IMG/VR virus record: IMGVR_UViG_2737471861_000023
DNA length: 19,938 nt
Reading direction: 5' to 3' (one strand)
DNA from: a virus
Taxonomy: Duplodnaviria; Heunggongvirae; Uroviricota; Caudoviricetes
The notes under the pieces are model-generated. The model did no database searches, was not told where the DNA came from, and saw only the letters and a program-made list of their open reading frames with translations. The position numbers were made by a program, and so were the translations under genes. Shown in pieces: positions 1 through 19,394 of the stretch; the first letter of the stretch is position 1, and the number at the start of each line of letters is the position of its first letter.

Positions 1-411
1 ATGGCTCAGGTTGCCCTTTTTAAAGAAATATTTGATCAAGTGCGGAAAGATTTAAACTGTGACCGATTTTACTCTGAACTAAAACGTCACAATGTCTCAC
101 ATTACATTTACTATTTAGCCACAGGTAATATTCACGTTGTATTGAAAAATGATAACGCAGTGTTAATAAAAGGACTTGAGGAGGTTGTGAATGTTAAATT
201 TCGCAGAGACACGCGACTTATAGAAACTTACTCTCATAAGTTGAAATCAAGAGAAATCACATTTCATGAATACAGGGAAAATCTGGCTAAGGCTGGAGTT
301 TTCCGATGGGTTACAAATGTCCATGAACACAAAAGGTATTACTATACCTTTGACAACTCATTATTGTTTACCGAAAGCATTCAGAACACGACACAATTTT
401 TTCCACGCTAA
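1..411 (+). CDS. DUF1398-family prophage protein (YdfO/YbcV-like), 136 aa
   Basis: ORF 1..411 with ATG at window position 1; size and sequence recalled as resembling the Qin/DLP12 YdfO/YbcV family; sits next to bor as in those prophages. Confidence 0.55.
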
Positions 412-3599: not shown

Positions 3600-4088
3600 T
3601 TAAAACCGTTCCAGAGTGCATACCATCGCATCGGCGGGTAGTTTTTCCGTGAAGTCGACCTGACCGTGTTTATCGAAGTGGATCAGTAATGCGCATCCAT
3701 CATTTTGGGTTGGGGTGTTTTGTGCTGCTGGTGGTTGTTTTTGGCTGAAATAACAGTCTTCCAGTTTTTCGAACACTTCCCACGCCTGATCGGTTTCCAG
3801 CATTTTGGCGTGACGGGCTGCTCCGCGTTCTGTCCAGAGGATGAGGTGCTTTGTACGCGGTGCAACTAAGTTACTTTGAGTAACCTTGTTCTTAAATTCC
3901 CGCAACTCAGCCCCTTCCAATTTGAAGTAGTGTTTCCCACAAACAAAACGCTCGGCATTGCGTGTATAGTTCACTTTGATGTTATTAGTTTCGGTGCCAT
4001 AAAGTTGTGCCAAAAGCTCGGTAGTAATGACAGGGATTTGGTTATGGGTGATCGGGGAAAGAGTTTCAACTGAGATTTGAATAGCCAT
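3600..4088 (-). CDS. ORF6N-domain protein, 162 aa (antirepressor-like N-terminal DNA-binding domain; function unknown)
   Basis: ATG at 4088 with AAGGA SD; N-terminal region fits the ORF6N pattern as recalled (FV..KHYF.LEG.EL..F ... LWTERGA.RHAKML..D.AWEVFE.LE..YF). Confidence 0.65.
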   Translation of the reverse strand: MAIQISVETLSPITHNQIPVITTELLAQLYGTETNNIKVNYTRNAERFVCGKHYFKLEGAELREFKNKVTQSNLVAPRTKHLILWTERGAARHAKMLETDQAWEVFEKLEDCYFSQKQPPAAQNTPTQNDGCALLIHFDKHGQVDFTEKLPADAMVCTLERF

Positions 4089-4269
4089 AGGATGATCCTT
4101 TTTCTATGTGAATCATCACCACTGCTGACGCCAATCAGTATGGTGGTGAACTGTGCAGGGTTGGCGTAACCGGGAAAAAGGAACCGGCGCGGATCGCTCC
4201 GCCCCCACACAGCCCACCATTGAGATGTGACAGTGCAAACGACAATAAAAAAGACGCTGGCGCGTGAGG

Positions 4270-7224: not shown

Positions 7225-7380
7225 TTACTCCTCAGGTTCGTAAGCTGTGAAGACAGCGACCTCCGTCTGGCCGGTTCGGATTCGTACCTCGCAGAGGTCT
7301 TTCCTCGTTACCAGTGCCGTCACAATGACGGTTAAACAGATGACGATCAGGGCGATTAACATCGCCTTTTGCTGCTTCAT
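7225..7380 (-). CDS. hokD: Hok-family type I toxin, 51 aa (HokD/RelF-like)
   Basis: Translation MKQQKAMLIALIVICLTVIVTALVTRKDLCEVRIRTGQTEVAVFTAYEPEE matches HokD/RelF as recalled. Confidence 0.9.
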   Translation of the reverse strand: MKQQKAMLIALIVICLTVIVTALVTRKDLCEVRIRTGQTEVAVFTAYEPEE

Positions 7381-7560
7381 AGCCTGCTTCTCCTTGCCTT
7401 TCGGCACGTAAGAGGCTAACCTAGATTTGCCGTTCATAGATTGAGCCTCAGATTAATGTTAAGCGTCTTGCAGGACGCGTAATGTTAACTGGGGCTTTTC
7501 TCTATCTGCCTTTGGTGTTCATGCCTGAGGCAGATAGCCTCAATCACCCGCAGCAATTCT
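7381..7560 (-). promoter_or_regulatory. hok mRNA leader: in-frame 19-codon upstream extension (mok-like, ATG at 7437 with GAGG SD), 9-bp inverted repeat 7502..7510/7529..7537; Sok antisense not confidently placed
   Basis: ORF track 7225..7437 is in frame with hok; inverted repeat read from sequence. Confidence 0.4.
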
Positions 7561-7681: not shown

Positions 7682-7995
7682 GACAACCTCCTGTATTGGA
7701 CGTACACCAGTCCTGATAAATATGAGGCTGTCTCATCATTGATTCAATATAACTATTGGGTATAGTTTCTGTGATTTTGTTCTGTAGAAATGGAACACAA
7801 CAACCAGTCTCCACCAGCACTTCTTTAAATACGCCAAGTCCGACGCAAGCTAACCTTCTAGTCCGCTTTGAGCGAACTGTGGAAGCTCGGAAATGTTGTT
7901 ACATCTGATGAAGGCATTACTCAAAGGAGGGGATAGTAGTCAACGTGGAGCAGGCCATGTTAGTATTTTTATACAATTCGACTAAGGGAAAAACA

Positions 7996-8865
7996 ATGAG
8001 GCTTTACATAATAGGAAATGGATTTGACATGCGTCATGGCTTACCAACAGGATACAAGCACTTTAAGTCGTATGTAGAAAAAAATGACCAAGATCTATAT
8101 GACGCGATAGAAGAATACATTCCTGCTGGGGACGAGTGGAATGAGTTAGAAAATGCTTTAGGTGAAATTGATTATGAGCTTATCCTTCAAAACAGTGAGA
8201 TATTTTTGGCTTCATACAATACCGATGATTGGAGCGATGCTTATCATCACGATTACCAATATGAAGTAAATAAAATCACACAAATGCTGTCAGCTCGTTT
8301 GAAGGAGCAATTCGCTGATTGGGTTAAAGGGATTAACATAGCCGATGCTTACAATCCTAAGCAATACATCCCGCCCATACCAAGAGAAAGCATCTATTTT
8401 TCATTTAATTATACAAATACCTTGCAGCAGATCTATGCCGTTCCAGACGAGCAAATCATACATATTCACGGCAATTGTAGTTACGATGACGATCTCATAC
8501 TTGGTCATAGTTTTAGGGTGGAAAAGTCACTAAATCCATATATAGGACCGGATCAAGATACAAGAATAGCAGAGGCATACGACAGAATAAACGAATACTT
8601 CGGTAATACATTCAAGCCCAGCGAAGACATAATTAAAGAAGAAAACGTTTTTTTCTCATCGCTTAAAAATGTGGACGAGGTCATCGTTTTAGGCCACTCG
8701 CTCGCCGAAGTTGACGGTGAATACTTTACTGAAATAAATAAAAGTATCCAAGAAAATGCTCGATGGATAATTGCTTTATATAGAGGTGAGAAAAAATCAG
8801 GCAGTTTAGAAGATTATGGTGTCAGAGGCTCAAATATTTCTTACGTACAGTATGAAGATATCTGA
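7996..8865 (+). CDS. AbiH-family abortive-infection protein homolog, 289 aa
   Basis: N-terminus MRLYIIGNGFDMRHGL carries the GNGFD motif I recall as diagnostic of the AbiH family; AGGGA SD; gene is AT-rich by eye. The track ORF start at 7945 (GTG) is considered an artefactual extension. Confidence 0.75.
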   Translation: MRLYIIGNGFDMRHGLPTGYKHFKSYVEKNDQDLYDAIEEYIPAGDEWNELENALGEIDYELILQNSEIFLASYNTDDWSDAYHHDYQYEVNKITQMLSARLKEQFADWVKGINIADAYNPKQYIPPIPRESIYFSFNYTNTLQQIYAVPDEQIIHIHGNCSYDDDLILGHSFRVEKSLNPYIGPDQDTRIAEAYDRINEYFGNTFKPSEDIIKEENVFFSSLKNVDEVIVLGHSLAEVDGEYFTEINKSIQENARWIIALYRGEKKSGSLEDYGVRGSNISYVQYEDI

Positions 8866-8954
8866 ATGAGACTTCATATTATAACTATAATTATGTAAAA
8901 AAGGCTGGTATTTTATACCTTGAGGAAAATAGATAAGAGGAATGAGGTTTGGTT

Positions 8955-10346
8955 ATGATGAATTATACTGATGAGTCAACTTTTCTTGAAAAGTACAAAC
9001 CGTTTAGGAAGTTTTGGACAATTTTATCACCTCATTATGTATCTTTAATGCATGCACTTGCCAAAATGATAAGGGGAGGGAATCCAATTCAAGAACTACC
9101 TTCCAATGATGAGGATTTTCTTGCAGAGTATGAAACCTGTCTCAAAAATTGGAAAGACTCACAAAAAATCATATCTTTTGAGATTATTATTCGGCTGAGA
9201 GATATAAAAAGATTGGAAACTGAAAAAAAAGAGCACCATCGAAACAAGGATAAAGAAAATAAAGAAAAGTGTATTGATGAAATAAGTTTAAAAAAAATTG
9301 AAATTCTTATTCTTCGCCGTTGTATTGACTCAATAATTTGGAGCATTCTTGATGAAGAACACTCTAGTTTGCGGCGTTTACCTATTAATGCAAGCAATGA
9401 CAATCTATCAGAAGATAACATAATTGATTCTATGGTCGCAGCCGATCTTATCAACCAGGACAAACACTCCGTAGCGATTGTCTCTGACATGAGCACATTT
9501 GTTCATGTGGGAGATTTAGTCACCTTTAATCTACTGGATGGCTTCCAGCTCGTGGAAGTTAAAACAGGTGAAAAGAATAATGAGCTTTATGAAGCTGCTG
9601 AATTTTCTGTTATCTCAGAATGTCCGCACTTTGAAGAAAACTTCATTAACAATATGCCTGACAATGATGTTAAGCAATTTAATCGCATAAAAAGGCAAAT
9701 CATTCGTGGCATGAATGTTCTGGAGGCGATTAATACTGGCGAGGGCTTTGACAACTTTCATCAGTCTAAAGTTAAAATCAATGAGATAGATCATCCGTCT
9801 GAATTTTATACCCACCGCTTAGTTAAAATGTGGGAGATTATTCGCGGAGGAAAAAATTGGGCAATTGATACTATTGATGAATGTTTGTTCTTAGGTATGT
9901 ACCGTGATTCTGAAATGGGCTTTGTTGCCTTCAATGGATGGATGGATAGTCTCGGTATAAAAAGCCCTGTTGTGAATATAAATGATTCATTCTTTGACCC
10001 TTTGTCTCGACCATTTATGAGTTTGCATCTGCCAACTGAAATGCTCTCCGATCTCATGTCGGGACAAATAATCATCGTCATGTGTTTTGACAATGAACTT
10101 TTTTTTCACCGTGCTAACAAAACGTACCCGGGTTTATATCTCCTTAGCGATGCAGCAAGAACAAAGCAGCCATTAGAAAATATTCTTCGTGTTGGTTCAC
10201 AAGGGATAGCTTCTTACGTAGATGGGAATACCAGCTTTTTAGGTAATGGTATTGAATCCCGTATCCTTTTCGATCAGCAACGACCCGACAACATTATTGA
10301 GTGGAGCTATGCTAGAAGCGATCTCAAAAAGCAACATGAAGCATAA
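8955..10346 (+). CDS. Hypothetical 463-aa protein co-transcribed with the AbiH homolog; candidate PD-(D/E)xK nuclease core (VHVGDLV...LVEVK) and Lys/Glu-rich region
   Basis: ATG at 8955 with GAGG SD, 89 nt after the AbiH stop, same strand; motif D189-x13-E203-V-K205 (track numbering) at nt about 9500..9565; no family recognised. Confidence 0.7.
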   Translation: MMNYTDESTFLEKYKPFRKFWTILSPHYVSLMHALAKMIRGGNPIQELPSNDEDFLAEYETCLKNWKDSQKIISFEIIIRLRDIKRLETEKKEHHRNKDKENKEKCIDEISLKKIEILILRRCIDSIIWSILDEEHSSLRRLPINASNDNLSEDNIIDSMVAADLINQDKHSVAIVSDMSTFVHVGDLVTFNLLDGFQLVEVKTGEKNNELYEAAEFSVISECPHFEENFINNMPDNDVKQFNRIKRQIIRGMNVLEAINTGEGFDNFHQSKVKINEIDHPSEFYTHRLVKMWEIIRGGKNWAIDTIDECLFLGMYRDSEMGFVAFNGWMDSLGIKSPVVNINDSFFDPLSRPFMSLHLPTEMLSDLMSGQIIIVMCFDNELFFHRANKTYPGLYLLSDAARTKQPLENILRVGSQGIASYVDGNTSFLGNGIESRILFDQQRPDNIIEWSYARSDLKKQHEA

Positions 10347-10608: not shown

Positions 10609-11031
10609 TCACTTCAATAAATACCGAACATCCCCCTGATAAAACGACAATATGCGCTGCATAACTTCGCTTTTACGACACTCAGTACAAATCATATTAT
10701 GACGCCTGTCGTAACGACGTATTTCTCCATCAGGTAATGACCAGATAAGGTCCGGATCAACCGCAGATGGTTTCTTCAGCTTTGCCCTTGAGAGCTTTTT
10801 ACGGGCATTTTGCCAGTCCTTACGCGCCTGTTCAGACGGGAATAACCCGTAACCAGAGTTGTATACATCGCCACTGGCAACCAGCTCTCTGGCCAGAACG
10901 CTCATCAGATATCTTGTTGCCCCAGTTTTAGCTTCCAGTTGTCGTAACGTCTCGCGCCCACTCTGGCGTACGAGTTCAAGAACCTGCCCTTTAATTTTTT
11001 CCCGCTCTTCTTGTGTAAAAACTTTTGCCAC
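10609..11031 (-). CDS. Hypothetical 140-aa protein downstream of the replication gene, GTG start
   Basis: GGAGG SD 4-5 nt before GTG; basic protein with CTEC motif; no family recognised. Confidence 0.55.
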   Translation of the reverse strand: MAKVFTQEEREKIKGQVLELVRQSGRETLRQLEAKTGATRYLMSVLARELVASGDVYNSGYGLFPSEQARKDWQNARKKLSRAKLKKPSAVDPDLIWSLPDGEIRRYDRRHNMICTECRKSEVMQRILSFYQGDVRYLLK

Positions 11032-11071: not shown

Positions 11072-12148
11072 TTACCCCCTGAAGCCCGGCGGAATTTCGT
11101 TATCCGGTTCAGAAATATGATTCACACAACGCTGGTTGTTCGTGCCGCTTACCGGGAGCAACCAGGGGTTCTCAAAATTCCGGTCCGGTCCAAAAAACGT
11201 CGTCGCTCGCTGAACAAATTCCGTTCCCGTTTTCCCGGTAGCCACCAAGTATCTTGCGTAACGCCTCACGCCATCCAGCATGGCCTCTGGTGGCACCCCC
11301 TCGCGTAATCTGGCCTTCCAGGCACTGAAAGCGGATTTCTTCGGGTTTGCTCCGGCACGCAACGGGTACTCCCGCCAGACCTGTTCGAACACATCCGGAT
11401 AATCCACTCGTCCCACAGACTGCCCGGTGTTTTCCGGGACTACCCGATCGGCTTCCCGCTGAATGGCGGAATCGGCTTCAGGCTGCTGCAGTTGGTGTGA
11501 TTGCTCCGGCCTTGCGGTCATCACCTGCTGCACAGCGCCCGAATCGGCTTTCAGCGCATACGCTGAATCGGCTTCCGGTGTCGTGCCTGCTGGCTGACCA
11601 AGATTGACGGTCTGAACATCCCCTGCCTGGTTCGTGGCGTTTTTTACGCCATGGACCATAGTGTTTTGATCTTCTTGATCTGTATCTTTATCTGTATCTT
11701 TATCTGTCGTGACTCGTCGTGACATGTGCGTGACATTTCGTGACGCGCCGTGACAATCGCCATTTTGTTCCCGCTTTCTTTCCCTCTCTCGCTGCGCCCT
11801 CTTGCGCTCTGCAGGAGATTTTGCGGTTTGCGAAATATTGCCGTTGTCCTCTTTAAGCACCTGGCGTTTTTCCCATCCAGTGATTAAATCACCATCAAGT
11901 ACCCGCCCCTGCATCGTCTGCAAAATTGAATCAATTACCTCTTCTGTCACGTCGAGCGCACTTGCCAAATCTTCTGTCGTGACATCAATGTGACCTCGCG
12001 TGACATTTCGTGACGCGCTCACCAGGAGGTGGATATACACTGCCATCACTGTTGCAATTGGCTGCCCTGACACCCTGGCAATTGTTCGCCACTTAGGGTC
12101 ATTTGGCATGTCATGCCATAATCTGAGCCAAGCGTTAGCCATACTCAC
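11072..12148 (-). CDS. ydaU: YdaU-like (DUF1376) putative replication initiator, 358 aa, with internal DKDTDKDTD repeat
   Basis: N-terminus MSMANAWLRLWHDMPNDPKW recalled as Rac YdaU-like; position after ydaS/ydaT; contains phased repeat arrays (see repeat features); real start may be the ATG at 12142. Confidence 0.75.
   Translation of the reverse strand: MSMANAWLRLWHDMPNDPKWRTIARVSGQPIATVMAVYIHLLVSASRNVTRGHIDVTTEDLASALDVTEEVIDSILQTMQGRVLDGDLITGWEKRQVLKEDNGNISQTAKSPAERKRAQRERERKREQNGDCHGASRNVTHMSRRVTTDKDTDKDTDQEDQNTMVHGVKNATNQAGDVQTVNLGQPAGTTPEADSAYALKADSGAVQQVMTARPEQSHQLQQPEADSAIQREADRVVPENTGQSVGRVDYPDVFEQVWREYPLRAGANPKKSAFSAWKARLREGVPPEAMLDGVRRYARYLVATGKTGTEFVQRATTFFGPDRNFENPWLLPVSGTNNQRCVNHISEPDNEIPPGFRG
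11708..11754. repeat. Array of five CGTGAC hexamers spaced 10-11 bp apart (candidate iterons), preceded by a tandem 12-bp repeat tatctgtatctt x2
   Basis: Hexamers start at 11708, 11718, 11729, 11739, 11749; positions cross-checked against the reading frame of the ydaU-like ORF. Confidence 0.6.
11946..12014. repeat. Second array: CGTGAC at 11978, 11999, 12009 and TGTGAC at 11989 (10-11 bp phasing) plus an inverted GTCACG at 11946; shares a 21-nt identical block with the first array
   Basis: Read from sequence and cross-checked against the ORF frame (protein repeat ASRNVT[H/R]). Confidence 0.6.
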
Positions 12149-12213: not shown

Positions 12214-12639
12214 TCAATGTACTGCCACAGCATTTCCTGCCGGGCCACCACGGTTCATCTGATTGAAACCGGCGATTGCCACTGCGACAAAATCATCAGC
12301 GTCTCTCACCAATCGCTCCCGCGTCTCCACCAGCTCCCGAAAATAAGCTGAACTGTGGCTGCGCATTCTGGCCACCAGCAAAGGTGGCATTGCCTTTTCG
12401 ATCGCTGGTAACAACGCCTGAATTTTTTCAACTGCATCAGGGGTGTCTTTCTCTACCCAGCGGAAAATTTTCTGTGTATTGCGAGCCAGGGCTTCCGGAT
12501 GGCTGTCGTCATACAGTTCAGGAAACGTCATACCCAACTCAAAATAAGCCTGGGTTATTCCAGCTGCTGGAACTTTTTCGCCATCAGGACGCGCCCAGGC
12601 ATTCATCGCCATGCGGATGTGTTCATGCTTGATTTTCAT
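12214..12639 (-). CDS. ydaT: YdaT-like protein (CII-like fold; Rac-prophage toxic protein family), 141 aa
   Basis: Translation MKIKHEHIRMAMNAWARPDGEKVPAAGITQAYFELG... matches Rac YdaT as recalled; ATGA overlap with the ydaS stop. Confidence 0.85.
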   Translation of the reverse strand: MKIKHEHIRMAMNAWARPDGEKVPAAGITQAYFELGMTFPELYDDSHPEALARNTQKIFRWVEKDTPDAVEKIQALLPAIEKAMPPLLVARMRSHSSAYFRELVETRERLVRDADDFVAVAIAGFNQMNRGGPAGNAVAVH

Positions 12640-12866
12640 GAATCCCCCCCTTGGTTAGAAGGCGGATTATGATCAGAACCGGGAATGACAACCGTCGGTA
12701 TGTGTAACTCATATTTGAGCGCCCCGGCAGTGACTGCCTGAATTAGCAACGCCCATTTCCACGGAACCTCTTCCCCCCACATGCTGACTGTGGTTTTTGA
12801 CGTTCCTAGAGCTGCGGCTGTTTTAACAACTCCGCCAAAATAGCCTAATACTTCTGATTTTTTCAT
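12636..12866 (-). CDS. ydaS: YdaS-like Cro-type HTH protein, 76 aa
   Basis: Start at MKKSEVLGYFGGVVKTAAALGTSKTTVSMW (HTH) with GGAG SD; divergent from the CI-like repressor. Confidence 0.8.
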   Translation of the reverse strand: MKKSEVLGYFGGVVKTAAALGTSKTTVSMWGEEVPWKWALLIQAVTAGALKYELHIPTVVIPGSDHNPPSNQGGDS

Positions 12867-12940
12867 GAGTCGCTCCATAAAACTGAACGCCAAAAGTTTA
12901 ATAATCAAAACCAAAGAAAGTCAAGAAACAAAACCATCTG

Positions 12941-12958
12941 TGTTTTAAAATCAAAACA
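12941..12958. promoter_or_regulatory. Operator-like palindrome TGTTTT-aaaatc-AAAACA overlapping the repressor start codon
   Basis: Inverted repeat read from sequence; same architecture repeated at 13663..13680; ATCAAAAC also at 12904..12911. Confidence 0.4.
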
Positions 12959-13596
12959 TGAGCAAGCAAACAATATCTGAACGCATAACCCAACGTATGC
13001 ATGCGCTAAACCTGAAAGGCAAAGACCTTGTCAATGCCACTGGCGCATCAAAAGGCTCCGTAAGTCAATGGATGAACGGTGGAGGAGCGCCGTCCTCGCG
13101 TTACATAAGTTCACTGGCAAAGATATTGAAAGTAAACGAAAATTGGCTTCTTAATGGAGGAGAGTTAAATACAGGTGATTCGCTTGATCTATCTTTACCG
13201 CCGATAAAAACGGTTCCGCTACTATCACTTCAGCAGGCAGCAAGCTGGAGTGATTATATGAAAAATTCCTCAATAACCTCTTGTGTGCAGCTTGTCGGAG
13301 AAATCCCGGCCAATACCTTTGCAGTTGTTCTAGAGAGTGACAGTATGTCAACATCTGGTGGGGGAGTTTCCATCCCAAATGGTTCAACAGTTTTTGTTGA
13401 TCCCGATCGAACCGTACAACCAGGAAATATTGTCCTTGCCTTACCCAAAGGGACCACAACACCTGTCATTCGTAAACTGGAGATAGAAGGGCCGGATATT
13501 CTTTTAGTCCCCACGAATCCTCGCTACCCTTCAATTATGCTGGATGATCTATCTTGCATATTGGGCGTATGCTTTAAAATTCAACAAGATATTTAA
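12958..13596 (+). CDS. CI-like prophage repressor: N-terminal XRE-type HTH plus C-terminal S24 (LexA-like) peptidase domain, 212 aa
   Basis: HTH segment (LVNATGASKGSVSQWMNGG) and S24-like C-terminus with Ser (VLESDSM) and Lys (VIRKL); divergent arrangement with the Cro-like gene. Confidence 0.85.
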   Translation: MSKQTISERITQRMHALNLKGKDLVNATGASKGSVSQWMNGGGAPSSRYISSLAKILKVNENWLLNGGELNTGDSLDLSLPPIKTVPLLSLQQAASWSDYMKNSSITSCVQLVGEIPANTFAVVLESDSMSTSGGGVSIPNGSTVFVDPDRTVQPGNIVLALPKGTTTPVIRKLEIEGPDILLVPTNPRYPSIMLDDLSCILGVCFKIQQDI

Positions 13597-18037: not shown

Positions 18038-18307
18038 ATGAGCGAACAGTACCTGATAACGCTCGATGAGTGGAAACCCAAACGGTTCAGTCTCCCAATA
18101 ACAAACACTACCCTGGTGAAATACGGAAAACTTGGATACATCGTACCAAGACCACAAAAAATTCGTGGACGTTGGCTGATAGATCGCCGGGCAGTATTTG
18201 TTGGACCTGGTGAAACGGGAATTGCGCCGGAAATTCATACTGGCGATGATGATGCACTGAAGGAGATTTTAACTCATGTCACCGAGGCCACGAAAAAACA
18301 GCACTGA
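18038..18307 (+). CDS. xis: Excisionase (lambda Xis-like), 89 aa
   Basis: N-terminal YLITLDEWKPKRFSLPITNTTLVKYGKLGYIVPRPQKIRGRWLI resembles lambda Xis pattern (YLTLQEW...RR...P..K.G); overlaps the integrase start. Confidence 0.65.
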   Translation: MSEQYLITLDEWKPKRFSLPITNTTLVKYGKLGYIVPRPQKIRGRWLIDRRAVFVGPGETGIAPEIHTGDDDALKEILTHVTEATKKQH

Positions 18308-19394
18308 CGTAGCCGGTCTTTACGAAAAGTTTGATCGCAGAACTGGCAGAGTTTACTACCAGTATAAAAACCCTGTGACTGGAAAATTTCACGGACTCGG
18401 AACAGACAAAGGCAAAGCTGAAAGAATCGCTTCCACAGCCAATCAGCGAATAGCTGCAGCAGAAGCCGAATATTTCATGCGCAAAATTGATGAAAGTCCA
18501 TCAGCAACAAAACGTCGGGGTATCAGATTAAAGGCATGGGTTGATCGATATCTGAAAATACAGGACACGCGACTGAAAAATGGAGATATTGCAGCTACAA
18601 CTCACAAAGAAAAAACTCGAATGGCTGCATACCTGGTTTCCCGTCTGGGAAACCACCCATTGAAAGAACTGGAAGTAAGAGACTTTGCATTAATACTGGA
18701 TGAGTGGCTGGATAAAGACATGGTCAGCACAGCGAGAGTAAATCGTGGATTATGGGTTGATATTTATAAAGAAGCACAGCATGCAGGGGAAGTTCCTCCT
18801 GGATGGAATCCTCCGGAGGCTACCCGTAAACCGATCCCTAAAGTAACCAGAGCCAGACTCACCCTGGAAGACTGGCAAAAAATTTACAACGCAACGCCTG
18901 AAAAACACTTTATCCGTAACGCAATGCTTCTTGCGATTGTTACTGGTCAGCGCCGTGATGACATTTGCCATATGCGTTTTTCAGATGTGTGGAACGAACA
19001 CCTGCATATTACCCAGGGAAAAACTGGAATGCGTCTGGCGTTACCGCTGACGCTACGCTGTGATGCCATTGGGATATCGCTAAAAGAAGTGATTGATGGA
19101 TGCAGGGACAGAATATTGAGTCCATACCTGATTCATAGTCGGCACCAAAAACAACCAAAACCAATGAGTAAAGACAACCTGAGCGATTACTTTGCCAAAG
19201 CGCGGGAGCTGGCTGGAATAATTCCACCAGCAGGAAAAACTCCGCCAACATTTCATGAACAACGTTCTCTATCAGAACGGCTGTACCGTGCACAGGGTAT
19301 CGATACAAAAACATTACTGGGACATAAAGTCCAGGCAACCACCGATCGTTATAACGATACTCGTGGTCAGGAATGGGTTAAATTGGTTGTTTGA
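18276..19394 (+). CDS. int: Tyrosine recombinase / phage integrase (lambda Int family), 372 aa
   Basis: Int-family N-terminal arm-binding region (YYQYKNPVTGKFHGLGTDKGKAERIA) and C-terminal catalytic residues (TGQRRDDICHMRF...LLGH...TDRY); AAGGAG SD. Confidence 0.9.
   Translation: MSPRPRKNSTDVAGLYEKFDRRTGRVYYQYKNPVTGKFHGLGTDKGKAERIASTANQRIAAAEAEYFMRKIDESPSATKRRGIRLKAWVDRYLKIQDTRLKNGDIAATTHKEKTRMAAYLVSRLGNHPLKELEVRDFALILDEWLDKDMVSTARVNRGLWVDIYKEAQHAGEVPPGWNPPEATRKPIPKVTRARLTLEDWQKIYNATPEKHFIRNAMLLAIVTGQRRDDICHMRFSDVWNEHLHITQGKTGMRLALPLTLRCDAIGISLKEVIDGCRDRILSPYLIHSRHQKQPKPMSKDNLSDYFAKARELAGIIPPAGKTPPTFHEQRSLSERLYRAQGIDTKTLLGHKVQATTDRYNDTRGQEWVKLVV

Follow-up and report, generated by a model that had tools for sequence, protein, structure and literature searches.

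The stretch of DNA analysed here (IMG/VR record IMGVR_UViG_2737471861_000023; 19,938 nt, referred to below as the window) is a lambdoid prophage, and its vegetative replication origin is likely to lie inside the gene of its own initiator, where it would consist of arrays of short direct repeats (iterons) and an unwinding element. These repeats had been proposed as a candidate origin within a 'ydaU-like' replication gene in an earlier note made from the sequence alone. The proposal is supported by synonymous sites that are frozen at the repeats in homologous genes, by a repeat core that changes in concert in both arrays and by an AT-rich tract next to the repeats in 59 of 68 loci.

Phased hexamers and an AT-rich tract inside the initiator gene

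The positions listed in the earlier note were confirmed. Exact copies of CGTGAC start on the + strand at 11708, 11718, 11729, 11739 and 11749 (downstream array) and at 11978, 11999 and 12009 (upstream array, which also includes a TGTGAC at 11989), and an inverted copy is located at 11946. The spacing, which had been described as about one helical turn, is 10, 11, 10 and 10 bp in the downstream array and 11, 10 and 10 bp in the upstream one, in + strand order. Also present as described were a 21-nt block (GCGTGACATTTCGTGACGCGC) identical at 11728-11748 and 11998-12018, the duplicated peptide ASRNVTR (aa 43-49) and ASRNVTH (aa 133-139) and, after the latter, the sequence DKDTDKDTD (aa 147-155), with a 12-bp unit, TCTTTATCTGTA, found there in 2.9 copies by Tandem Repeats Finder (TRF).

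Nine of the 14 CGTGAC copies of the window sit within 307 bp, compared with ~7.5 copies expected in the whole window, and five copies at 9-12 bp spacing were never reached in 300 first-order Markov simulations, in which the maximum was 3 and 294 runs gave 2. No other hexamer in the window had a run of five phased copies, TRF detected no comparable phased array elsewhere in it, and no Rfam family was found in the iteron region. All copies within one array are direct, with a core of 6-7 bp and flanking positions that hold merely 0.1-0.7 bit each, and the two arrays lie ~230 bp apart, roughly in helical register. No DnaA box (TTATCCACA, within one mismatch) was found between 124 and 16375.

The downstream array is followed by an AT-rich tract that holds the lowest GC content of the initiator gene (0.30 at 11660-11699, 40-nt windows) and is a candidate DNA unwinding element. 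The 12-bp repeat that had been described as adjoining the array is indeed there, but it probably belongs to the core of the origin, as part of this unwinding element, rather than being an appendage. As in lambda-type origins, the downstream array and the tract encode a segment (aa ~130-160) that is predicted to be disordered and lies past the folded N-terminal domain, the array itself coding for the first part of this disordered linker (aa ~130-145), and the residues encoded by the tract were also disordered in the AlphaFold2 prediction. The upstream array codes for aa 43-55, at the end of helix 29-45 and in loop 46-55 of the N-terminal domain. Since the parts of the gene that carry the arrays encode a loop and a disordered linker, the protein can tolerate a sequence dictated by the DNA. 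Directly past the tract there is an interrupted palindrome (-8.7 kcal/mol when folded as DNA, z -2.75), which is a candidate fourth element of the origin. Two GATC (Dam) sites are located inside the tract (11668-11671 and 11677-11680), and in several enterobacterial homologs and in ydaU of the Rac prophage the tract ends with AAAGATCTAAAA.

The open reading frame (ORF) of the initiator extends over 11072-12148 of the minus strand from a GTG (358 aa with this start), although the true start is most likely the ATG at 12142, given that the encoded sequence MANAWLRLW is the same in homologs and that a Shine-Dalgarno-like AAGAGGTGA lies upstream. The profile of PHROG 3729, 'replication initiation protein', covers the protein over its full length (residues 3-358 of the 358-aa ORF vs. 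profile positions 1-356 of 356; E 2.5e-257), and as this family name is an annotation, the function is a predicted one. Its C-terminal half matches phrog_1701 and similar PHROGs, 'DnaD-like helicase loader', and its NCBI label is 'phage replisome organizer'. In Pfam nothing was detected above threshold: Phage_rep_org_N (PF09681) scored 12.7 bits vs. a cut-off of 23.3 (E 0.13); TIGR01714 reached 15.4 bits vs. a cut-off of 49.8. As the alignment to PF09681/TIGR01714 runs from end to end (positions 1-118 of 121), a distant kinship with the replisome organizer N-terminal family is possible. Phage_rep_O, the lambda O family, gave no Pfam match even at E <= 10, and neither did DUF1376 appear. In sequence searches of Pfam, NCBIfam and PDB the only significant match was the DnaT/YdaU-like C-terminal tail; a Pfam scan of C-terminal homologs produced no match, and a second homolog search gained little diversity.

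The label 'ydaU-like' used in the earlier note holds for the position and role of the gene, but not for the DNA-binding part of its product, which lacks DUF1376: BLASTP against YdaU of strain K-12 aligned just the last 19 residues (68% identity, ...IPPGFRG) and the low-complexity DKDTDKD tract. These last 19 residues (RCVNHISEPDNEIPPGFRG, encoded at 11072-11131 of the window) are similar to the C-terminal ends of both YdaU and the primosomal protein DnaT (PDB 6aep, 2ru8, 9zbt), and they may be a shared docking peptide for the host helicase-loading machinery.

An AlphaFold2 model of aa 1-155 (mean pLDDT 71) contained helices at 3-11, 16-25 and 29-45, the loop 46-55, helices at 56-63 and 67-77, a beta hairpin at 78-87, a disordered stretch, a basic helix at 110-126 and disorder from 131, with pLDDT < 50 for aa 131-155. 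A beta hairpin after helices is the winged-helix pattern, and the model suggests that the N-terminal domain is winged-helix-like. As Foldseek comparison of the N-terminal model with PDB returned weak winged-helix regulators only, all of them with E > 0.1, this assignment is suggestive only.

Conservation of the proposed origin elements and their protein partner

The conservation of these elements was analysed in homologs obtained by scanning one genome per species, which yielded 80 loci with 34-99% identity, mostly in gamma-, beta- and alpha-proteobacterial prophages. A scan of IMG/VR also yielded 80 loci, ~100% identical and uninformative for divergence tests. By tblastn with the N-terminal 175 residues, relatives with a ~70% identical N-terminal domain were detected in Aeromonas phage pAEv1818 and in D3-like Pseudomonas phages, and more distant ones in Ralstonia and in uncultured phages. 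The module is present in 2,210 of 5,426 complete E. coli genomes, O157:H7 prophages included. Fragments 99-100% identical to the E. coli initiator in a contig of a Collinsella metagenome-assembled genome (L083) and in a Staphylococcus saprophyticus record (P0031) are most likely assembly contamination.

In the homologs as a whole, the hexamer with the strongest phasing occurs in two arrays, one at ~nt 130-165 of the gene and the other at ~nt 350-440. Both arrays of the earlier note are real, but they are unequal, as the upstream one is optional (3-6 hexamers; absent in ~24 of the 80 homologs), which makes the downstream array the nearly universal element. The distances between the arrays step by ~10 bp (189, 211, 219, 229, 238 and 247), which suggests that both are kept in helical register, a signal inflated by related loci. 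In the genes from Aeromonas and Pseudomonas, GTCACG is retained in both arrays with the same spacing, and the inverted copy is found at the same place, with N-terminal domains that are only ~70% identical to that of the window. The similarity of these proteins to that of the window ends right past the downstream array.

The effect of selection was most evident at synonymous sites. Codons within the hexamers keep the codon of the window in 81% of the homologs with the same amino acid, vs. 39% for 71 other codons (homologs picked by protein identity alone, >=55%, n = 38; Mann-Whitney p = 7e-6), which is the opposite of the free synonymous change that, according to the earlier note, would speak against an origin. 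In the GTCACG-class subset, V47 GTC, T48 ACG, G50 GGT, H51 CAC and V54 GTC were each conserved in 96% of the cases and T55 ACG in 92%, and V65 GTG, within the inverted copy, was kept in 92-95% of the homologs.

As the period of 10-11 bp is not a multiple of 3, the hexamer falls in all three reading frames, giving V-T, x-H-x and x-S-R, and peptides that cycle through VT, (C,G,R,S)H and SR. The downstream array starts in different frames in different loci (16/7/4), and its peptides are frame permutations of one another over identical DNA cores. The odd peptides of these proteins, VT/CH/SR cycles and DKDT repeats alike, would therefore exist because the DNA dictates them. Among variants from E. 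coli, O157:H7 and E. albertii (84-87% nucleotide identity) the five downstream cores are invariant and the spacers differ. In two of these loci (L166:1440-1998, from O157:H7 Xuzhou21, and L006, from E. albertii), the upstream array has an insertion of 21 bp that brings two further cores and seven residues, so that the loop of the N-terminal domain encoded there expands when cores are added. At the level of sequence comparison, the hexamer repeats were shown to be selected as DNA and not as protein.

The AT tract is conserved in place. In 59 of 68 homologs the minimum GC content (first 800 nt) falls within -10 to +40 nt of the end of the downstream array; in these, as in the window and in lambda-type origins, an AT-rich region adjoins the repeats. 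The 36 nt past the downstream array have a mean GC content of 35% vs. 56% for the gene, even in hosts with >60% GC, and the tracts are always A/G-rich on the coding strand, in the form of (GATAAA)n, (GATACA)n or (AGAGAAG)n. At the relative position of the palindrome, perfect stems of >=7 bp were found in 30% of the homolog loci vs. 9% of control windows (p = 2.6e-9), a comparison that was used because choosing the best hairpin per locus makes a covariation test circular. A GC-rich hairpin follows the tract in L002, L007, L020, L036, L044, L056, L062, L064, L076, L081 and other loci, with stem sequences that vary by locus and recurring loops (TGAC, TAAC, TATC and TCACTACGTTC). The hairpin overlaps a P-x-G peptide motif, and its stems reach well into non-conserved residues.

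The core itself varies by subfamily (GTCACG, CGAACG, GTAACG, GCAACG, GTGACG and ACTACG), with the general form NNNACG, often followed by C. Phages with GCAACG and GTGACG cores are close relatives, as L004, L075 and L076 are of L080, L081 and L084. Of the 56 loci with two arrays, 51 have one and the same NNNACG core in both, across five classes; with permuted pairings of the arrays, matching loci averaged 17 and never exceeded 28. The class of the core tracks the phage protein rather than the host: the GTCACG core is shared by phages from E. coli, Aeromonas, Pseudomonas, Bordetella and Acidovorax, and enterobacterial prophages carry GTCACG, GTAACG or ACTACG, an independence that argues against a host factor. 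Clustering of the flanking ORFs in the 26 loci with GTCACG arrays gave 20 unrelated clusters upstream and 17 downstream (19 loci), and the C-terminal portions of the initiator formed 8 clusters. Across these sequences, the winged-helix-like N-terminal domain was shown to be the sole constant protein partner of the arrays. A more specific candidate within this domain, the loop aa 46-55 as the element that sets iteron specificity in a self-referential recognition, was considered and is unlikely, as loci without the upstream array have similar loops (xxExRGxL/I) with any core class.

Homology between the window and the O157 variant ends at ~11672-11680, inside the AT tract, and in that variant a DnaT-like domain is present and a 'replication protein P' gene lies downstream. 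With the homology ending there, the origin appears as the joint at which recognition heads and recruitment bodies are exchanged. A further-reaching and doubtful idea is that these origins are 'programmable', the three variable bases before ACG(C) setting the specificity, the cassette lying at the joint, and heads (this domain or DUF1376/YdaU) being swapped onto C-terminal bodies. If so, a programmable cassette made of iterons, a (GATAAA)n-type unwinding tract and a hairpin would sit exactly at the recombination joint, and the shared C-terminal bodies would plug into the DnaB-loading machinery of the host through the DnaT-like tail.

Proposed mode of action, rival readings and prophage setting

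A possible sequence of events at such an origin is as follows. Once the prophage is induced, the initiator would be made from the early rightward transcript (cro, CII-like gene, rep), and its N-terminal domains would occupy the direct repeats, one at each helical turn and next to one another on the same face of the DNA. The five-copy downstream array would be the core site, and the upstream array and the inverted copy would be auxiliary or control sites. The nucleoprotein complex would then destabilise the adjoining AT tract (11660-11707), and the C-terminal domain would recruit the DnaB helicase of the host, possibly through its DnaT-like tail, a route proposed because no loader gene adjoins the initiator gene; no helicase or loader gene was found after it within the window.

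It is improbable that the arrays bind the initiator for the sake of control (as an autoregulatory roadblock, by titration or by handcuffing), with the true origin elsewhere in the prophage. Such a role would fit the upstream array, which is dispensable in ~24 of the 80 homologs and hence not a universal core element, and extra iterons with control roles are generally known from iteron plasmids and have been described in Stx phages (PMC7466680). However, the downstream array is coupled to the AT tract in 59 of 68 loci, a tract that a control site would not need, the window contains no other phased array, whether searched by TRF or as hexamer runs of five, and the placement in an interdomain linker matches that of the lambda ori. 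The repeats might instead be read by another factor (the CII-like YdaT, Cro, the DUF977 protein or a host protein) that regulates transcription, for example from an internal or antisense promoter like pRE or paQ. Lambda CII binds TTGC-N6-TTGC inside coding sequence, and its sites at pRE and paQ are direct repeats 10 bp apart. To this precedent for sites within coding sequence is added a weak sigma-70-like match (9 of 12 positions) over the downstream array, at 11730-11757 of the + strand. Nevertheless, this explanation is very unlikely when confronted with the unrelated neighbours of the GTCACG loci (20 upstream and 17 downstream clusters), with a core class that is independent of the host and with 4-6 copies in two arrays, which exceed the needs of a promoter activator site. 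An internal promoter as such was not supported, as promoter-like matches amounted to 3 vs. 1.8 +/- 1.2 in shuffled sequence.

That the DNA repeats are a by-product of the duplicated peptide (ASRNVT...) or of low-complexity coding sequence is scarcely credible. ASRNVTR, ASRNVTH and the DKDT repeat do occur in the protein, but a period of 10-11 nt does not correspond to whole codons and puts the cores in three frames, the synonymous sites are frozen, the peptides of the downstream array vary by locus over identical DNA cores, and the arrays code for a loop and a disordered linker.

The interpretation of the site as the replication origin has also points against it. The loci compared are phylogenetically related, and the counts and p-values given above overstate the number of independent events. 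On the antisense strand, the T-rich complement of the tract comes after the hairpin, which could equally be an antisense terminator, so that the AT tract and the hairpin together could be read as an intrinsic terminator of that strand. No homology of the initiator to the two characterised initiators was detected (no Pfam Phage_rep_O match; hhalign against SPP1 gp38 negative, with a probability <1% for both the N-terminal and the C-terminal profile), the fold assignment of its N-terminal domain is weak (mean pLDDT 71; no Foldseek match below E 0.1), and the route of helicase recruitment is purely conjectural.

The genes that surround the proposed origin are listed in Table 1. An AbiH abortive-infection gene (7945-8865, +) lies in opposite orientation between the DUF977 and DUF968 genes, and next to it there is an ORF of 465 aa (8949-10346, +) without match in Pfam or PADLOC; the insert 7945-10346 looks like a moron or defence islet. 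A sok antitoxin RNA was matched in Rfam at 7375-7549 (-, 101.6 bits), an indication that the prophage carries a toxin-antitoxin locus of the hok/sok type. A C4 antisense RNA was also matched in Rfam (4139-4224, -, 74 bits), just upstream of a gene with an ORF6N domain (3600-4088, -), and the two resemble a c4/antirepressor immunity module of the P1/P7 type within a lambdoid prophage.

Table 1. Coordinates of the proposed origin elements, the initiator and other prophage genes in the window
Feature	Position	Strand	Remarks
Replication initiator gene	11072-12142	-	356 aa, ORF and translation
Initiator, N-terminal domain	aa 1-~95		winged-helix-like (predicted)
Initiator, basic helix	aa 110-126		
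Initiator, linker	aa ~131-230		disordered; then C-terminal domain and DnaT/YdaU-like tail
Upstream array (array 2)	11978-12014	-	three GTCACG and one GTCACA, 10-11 bp apart
Inverted single core	11946-11951	+	GTCACG reads on + strand
Downstream array (array 1)	11708-11754	-	five exact GTCACG (coding strand), 10-11 bp apart
AT-rich tract	11660-11707		A/G-rich on coding strand; includes 12-bp tandem repeat 11673-11707
Interrupted 31-nt palindrome	11628-11658		directly past AT tract; coding strand TGGTCCATGGCGTAAAAAACGCCACGAACCA
Integrase gene	18276-19394		
CI-like repressor gene	12958-13596	+	
P22-type Cro gene	12636-12914	-	
YdaT/CII-like gene	12214-12639	-	initiator gene comes next
DUF977/Ren-like gene	10609-11031	-	after initiator gene
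RusA, DUF968 and lysozyme genes			further along than DUF977/Ren-like gene

Significance and comparison with known origins

Literature searches on the core sequence, on replisome organizer with iterons and on E. coli prophages returned no description of this origin. The module is nonetheless very widespread, and the DNA-binding domain of its initiator has no Pfam model. The anatomy proposed here would offer a well-defined target for work on prophage induction and escape replication or for blocking them, and synonymous recoding of the hexamers should separate the function of the origin from that of the protein. With no fewer than five core classes in nature, each paired with a matching initiator domain, there is material for deciphering a recognition code and for orthogonal origin/initiator pairs, and the origin also indicates where replication modules recombine.

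In lambda and Stx phages, the design of an origin inside the initiator gene has been experimentally established (PMC7466680, PMC3349717). The site described here shares with them its location in the initiator gene, at the linker that separates an N-terminal domain for origin binding from a C-terminal one for recruitment, and the order of its elements, with initiator-binding repeats (a predicted binding in the present case) followed by an AT-rich tract of ~40 bp in the direction of transcription (PMC7466680, PMC3349717). Added repeats add residues in both cases, 13 aa in the O protein of Stx phages and 7 aa in the O157 variant, and the origin region is in both a joint for the exchange of N- and C-terminal modules. 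In lambda, a palindrome is also found beyond the AT tract. In contrast, the initiator falls outside the lambda O family, as it has no Phage_rep_O match; lambda iterons are 18-19 bp long with internal dyad symmetry, whereas here the cores are direct, of 6-7 bp and one per turn; the repeats form two arrays separated by ~230 bp, of which one lies within the part for the folded DNA-binding domain; and no P-type loader gene follows the initiator gene within the window.

The E. coli Rac prophage shares the operon place of the gene (cro-like, ydaT-like, initiator), a mid-gene AT tract of the same kind (AAAGATACAGATAAAGATC, encoding NKDTDKDLK) with its own repeats before it, and the C-terminal tail ...IPPGFRG, the C-terminal body of YdaU sharing 25-55% identity with those of 12 members of the initiator family. 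It differs in an unrelated N-terminal DNA-binding domain, in the absence of GTCACG-type repeats from ydaU and in the DnaC-like gene ydaV that follows ydaU. In Rac ydaU (L165:4120-4977, E. coli K-12) the AT tract is at nt ~482-507, with TGTTCAAACA-like repeats, direct and inverted, at nt ~390-470 and a CCCCC...GGGGG inverted repeat after the tract. This mid-gene site may be the location of oriJ, the known origin of Rac.

Iteron plasmids of the Rep_3 type (pSC101, F, R6K, pPS10) have a winged-helix initiator, direct repeats next to an AT-rich unwinding element and extra control clusters; their iterons are 17-22 bp long with ~22-bp spacing, and are located outside the rep gene, usually with DnaA boxes. 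Direct repeats, a predicted winged-helix-like initiator and an AT-rich element are thus in common, but here the repeats are intragenic, with cores one turn apart and no DnaA box nearby, which is not the makeup of a Rep_3-type origin.

The design is also that of oriL in gene 38 of phage SPP1, for which it has likewise been established by experiment, and with which the NCBI name 'phage replisome organizer' is shared: gp38 binds direct repeats in its own gene beside an AT-rich unwinding element and has two separate binding regions (PMC6316719). In SPP1 the second site, oriR, is 13 kb away, vs. ~230 bp between the two arrays of the window. The proposed origin therefore follows a known design, that of the lambda ori and of SPP1 oriL, and, to judge from the sequences compared, its repeat anatomy and initiator family differ from both.

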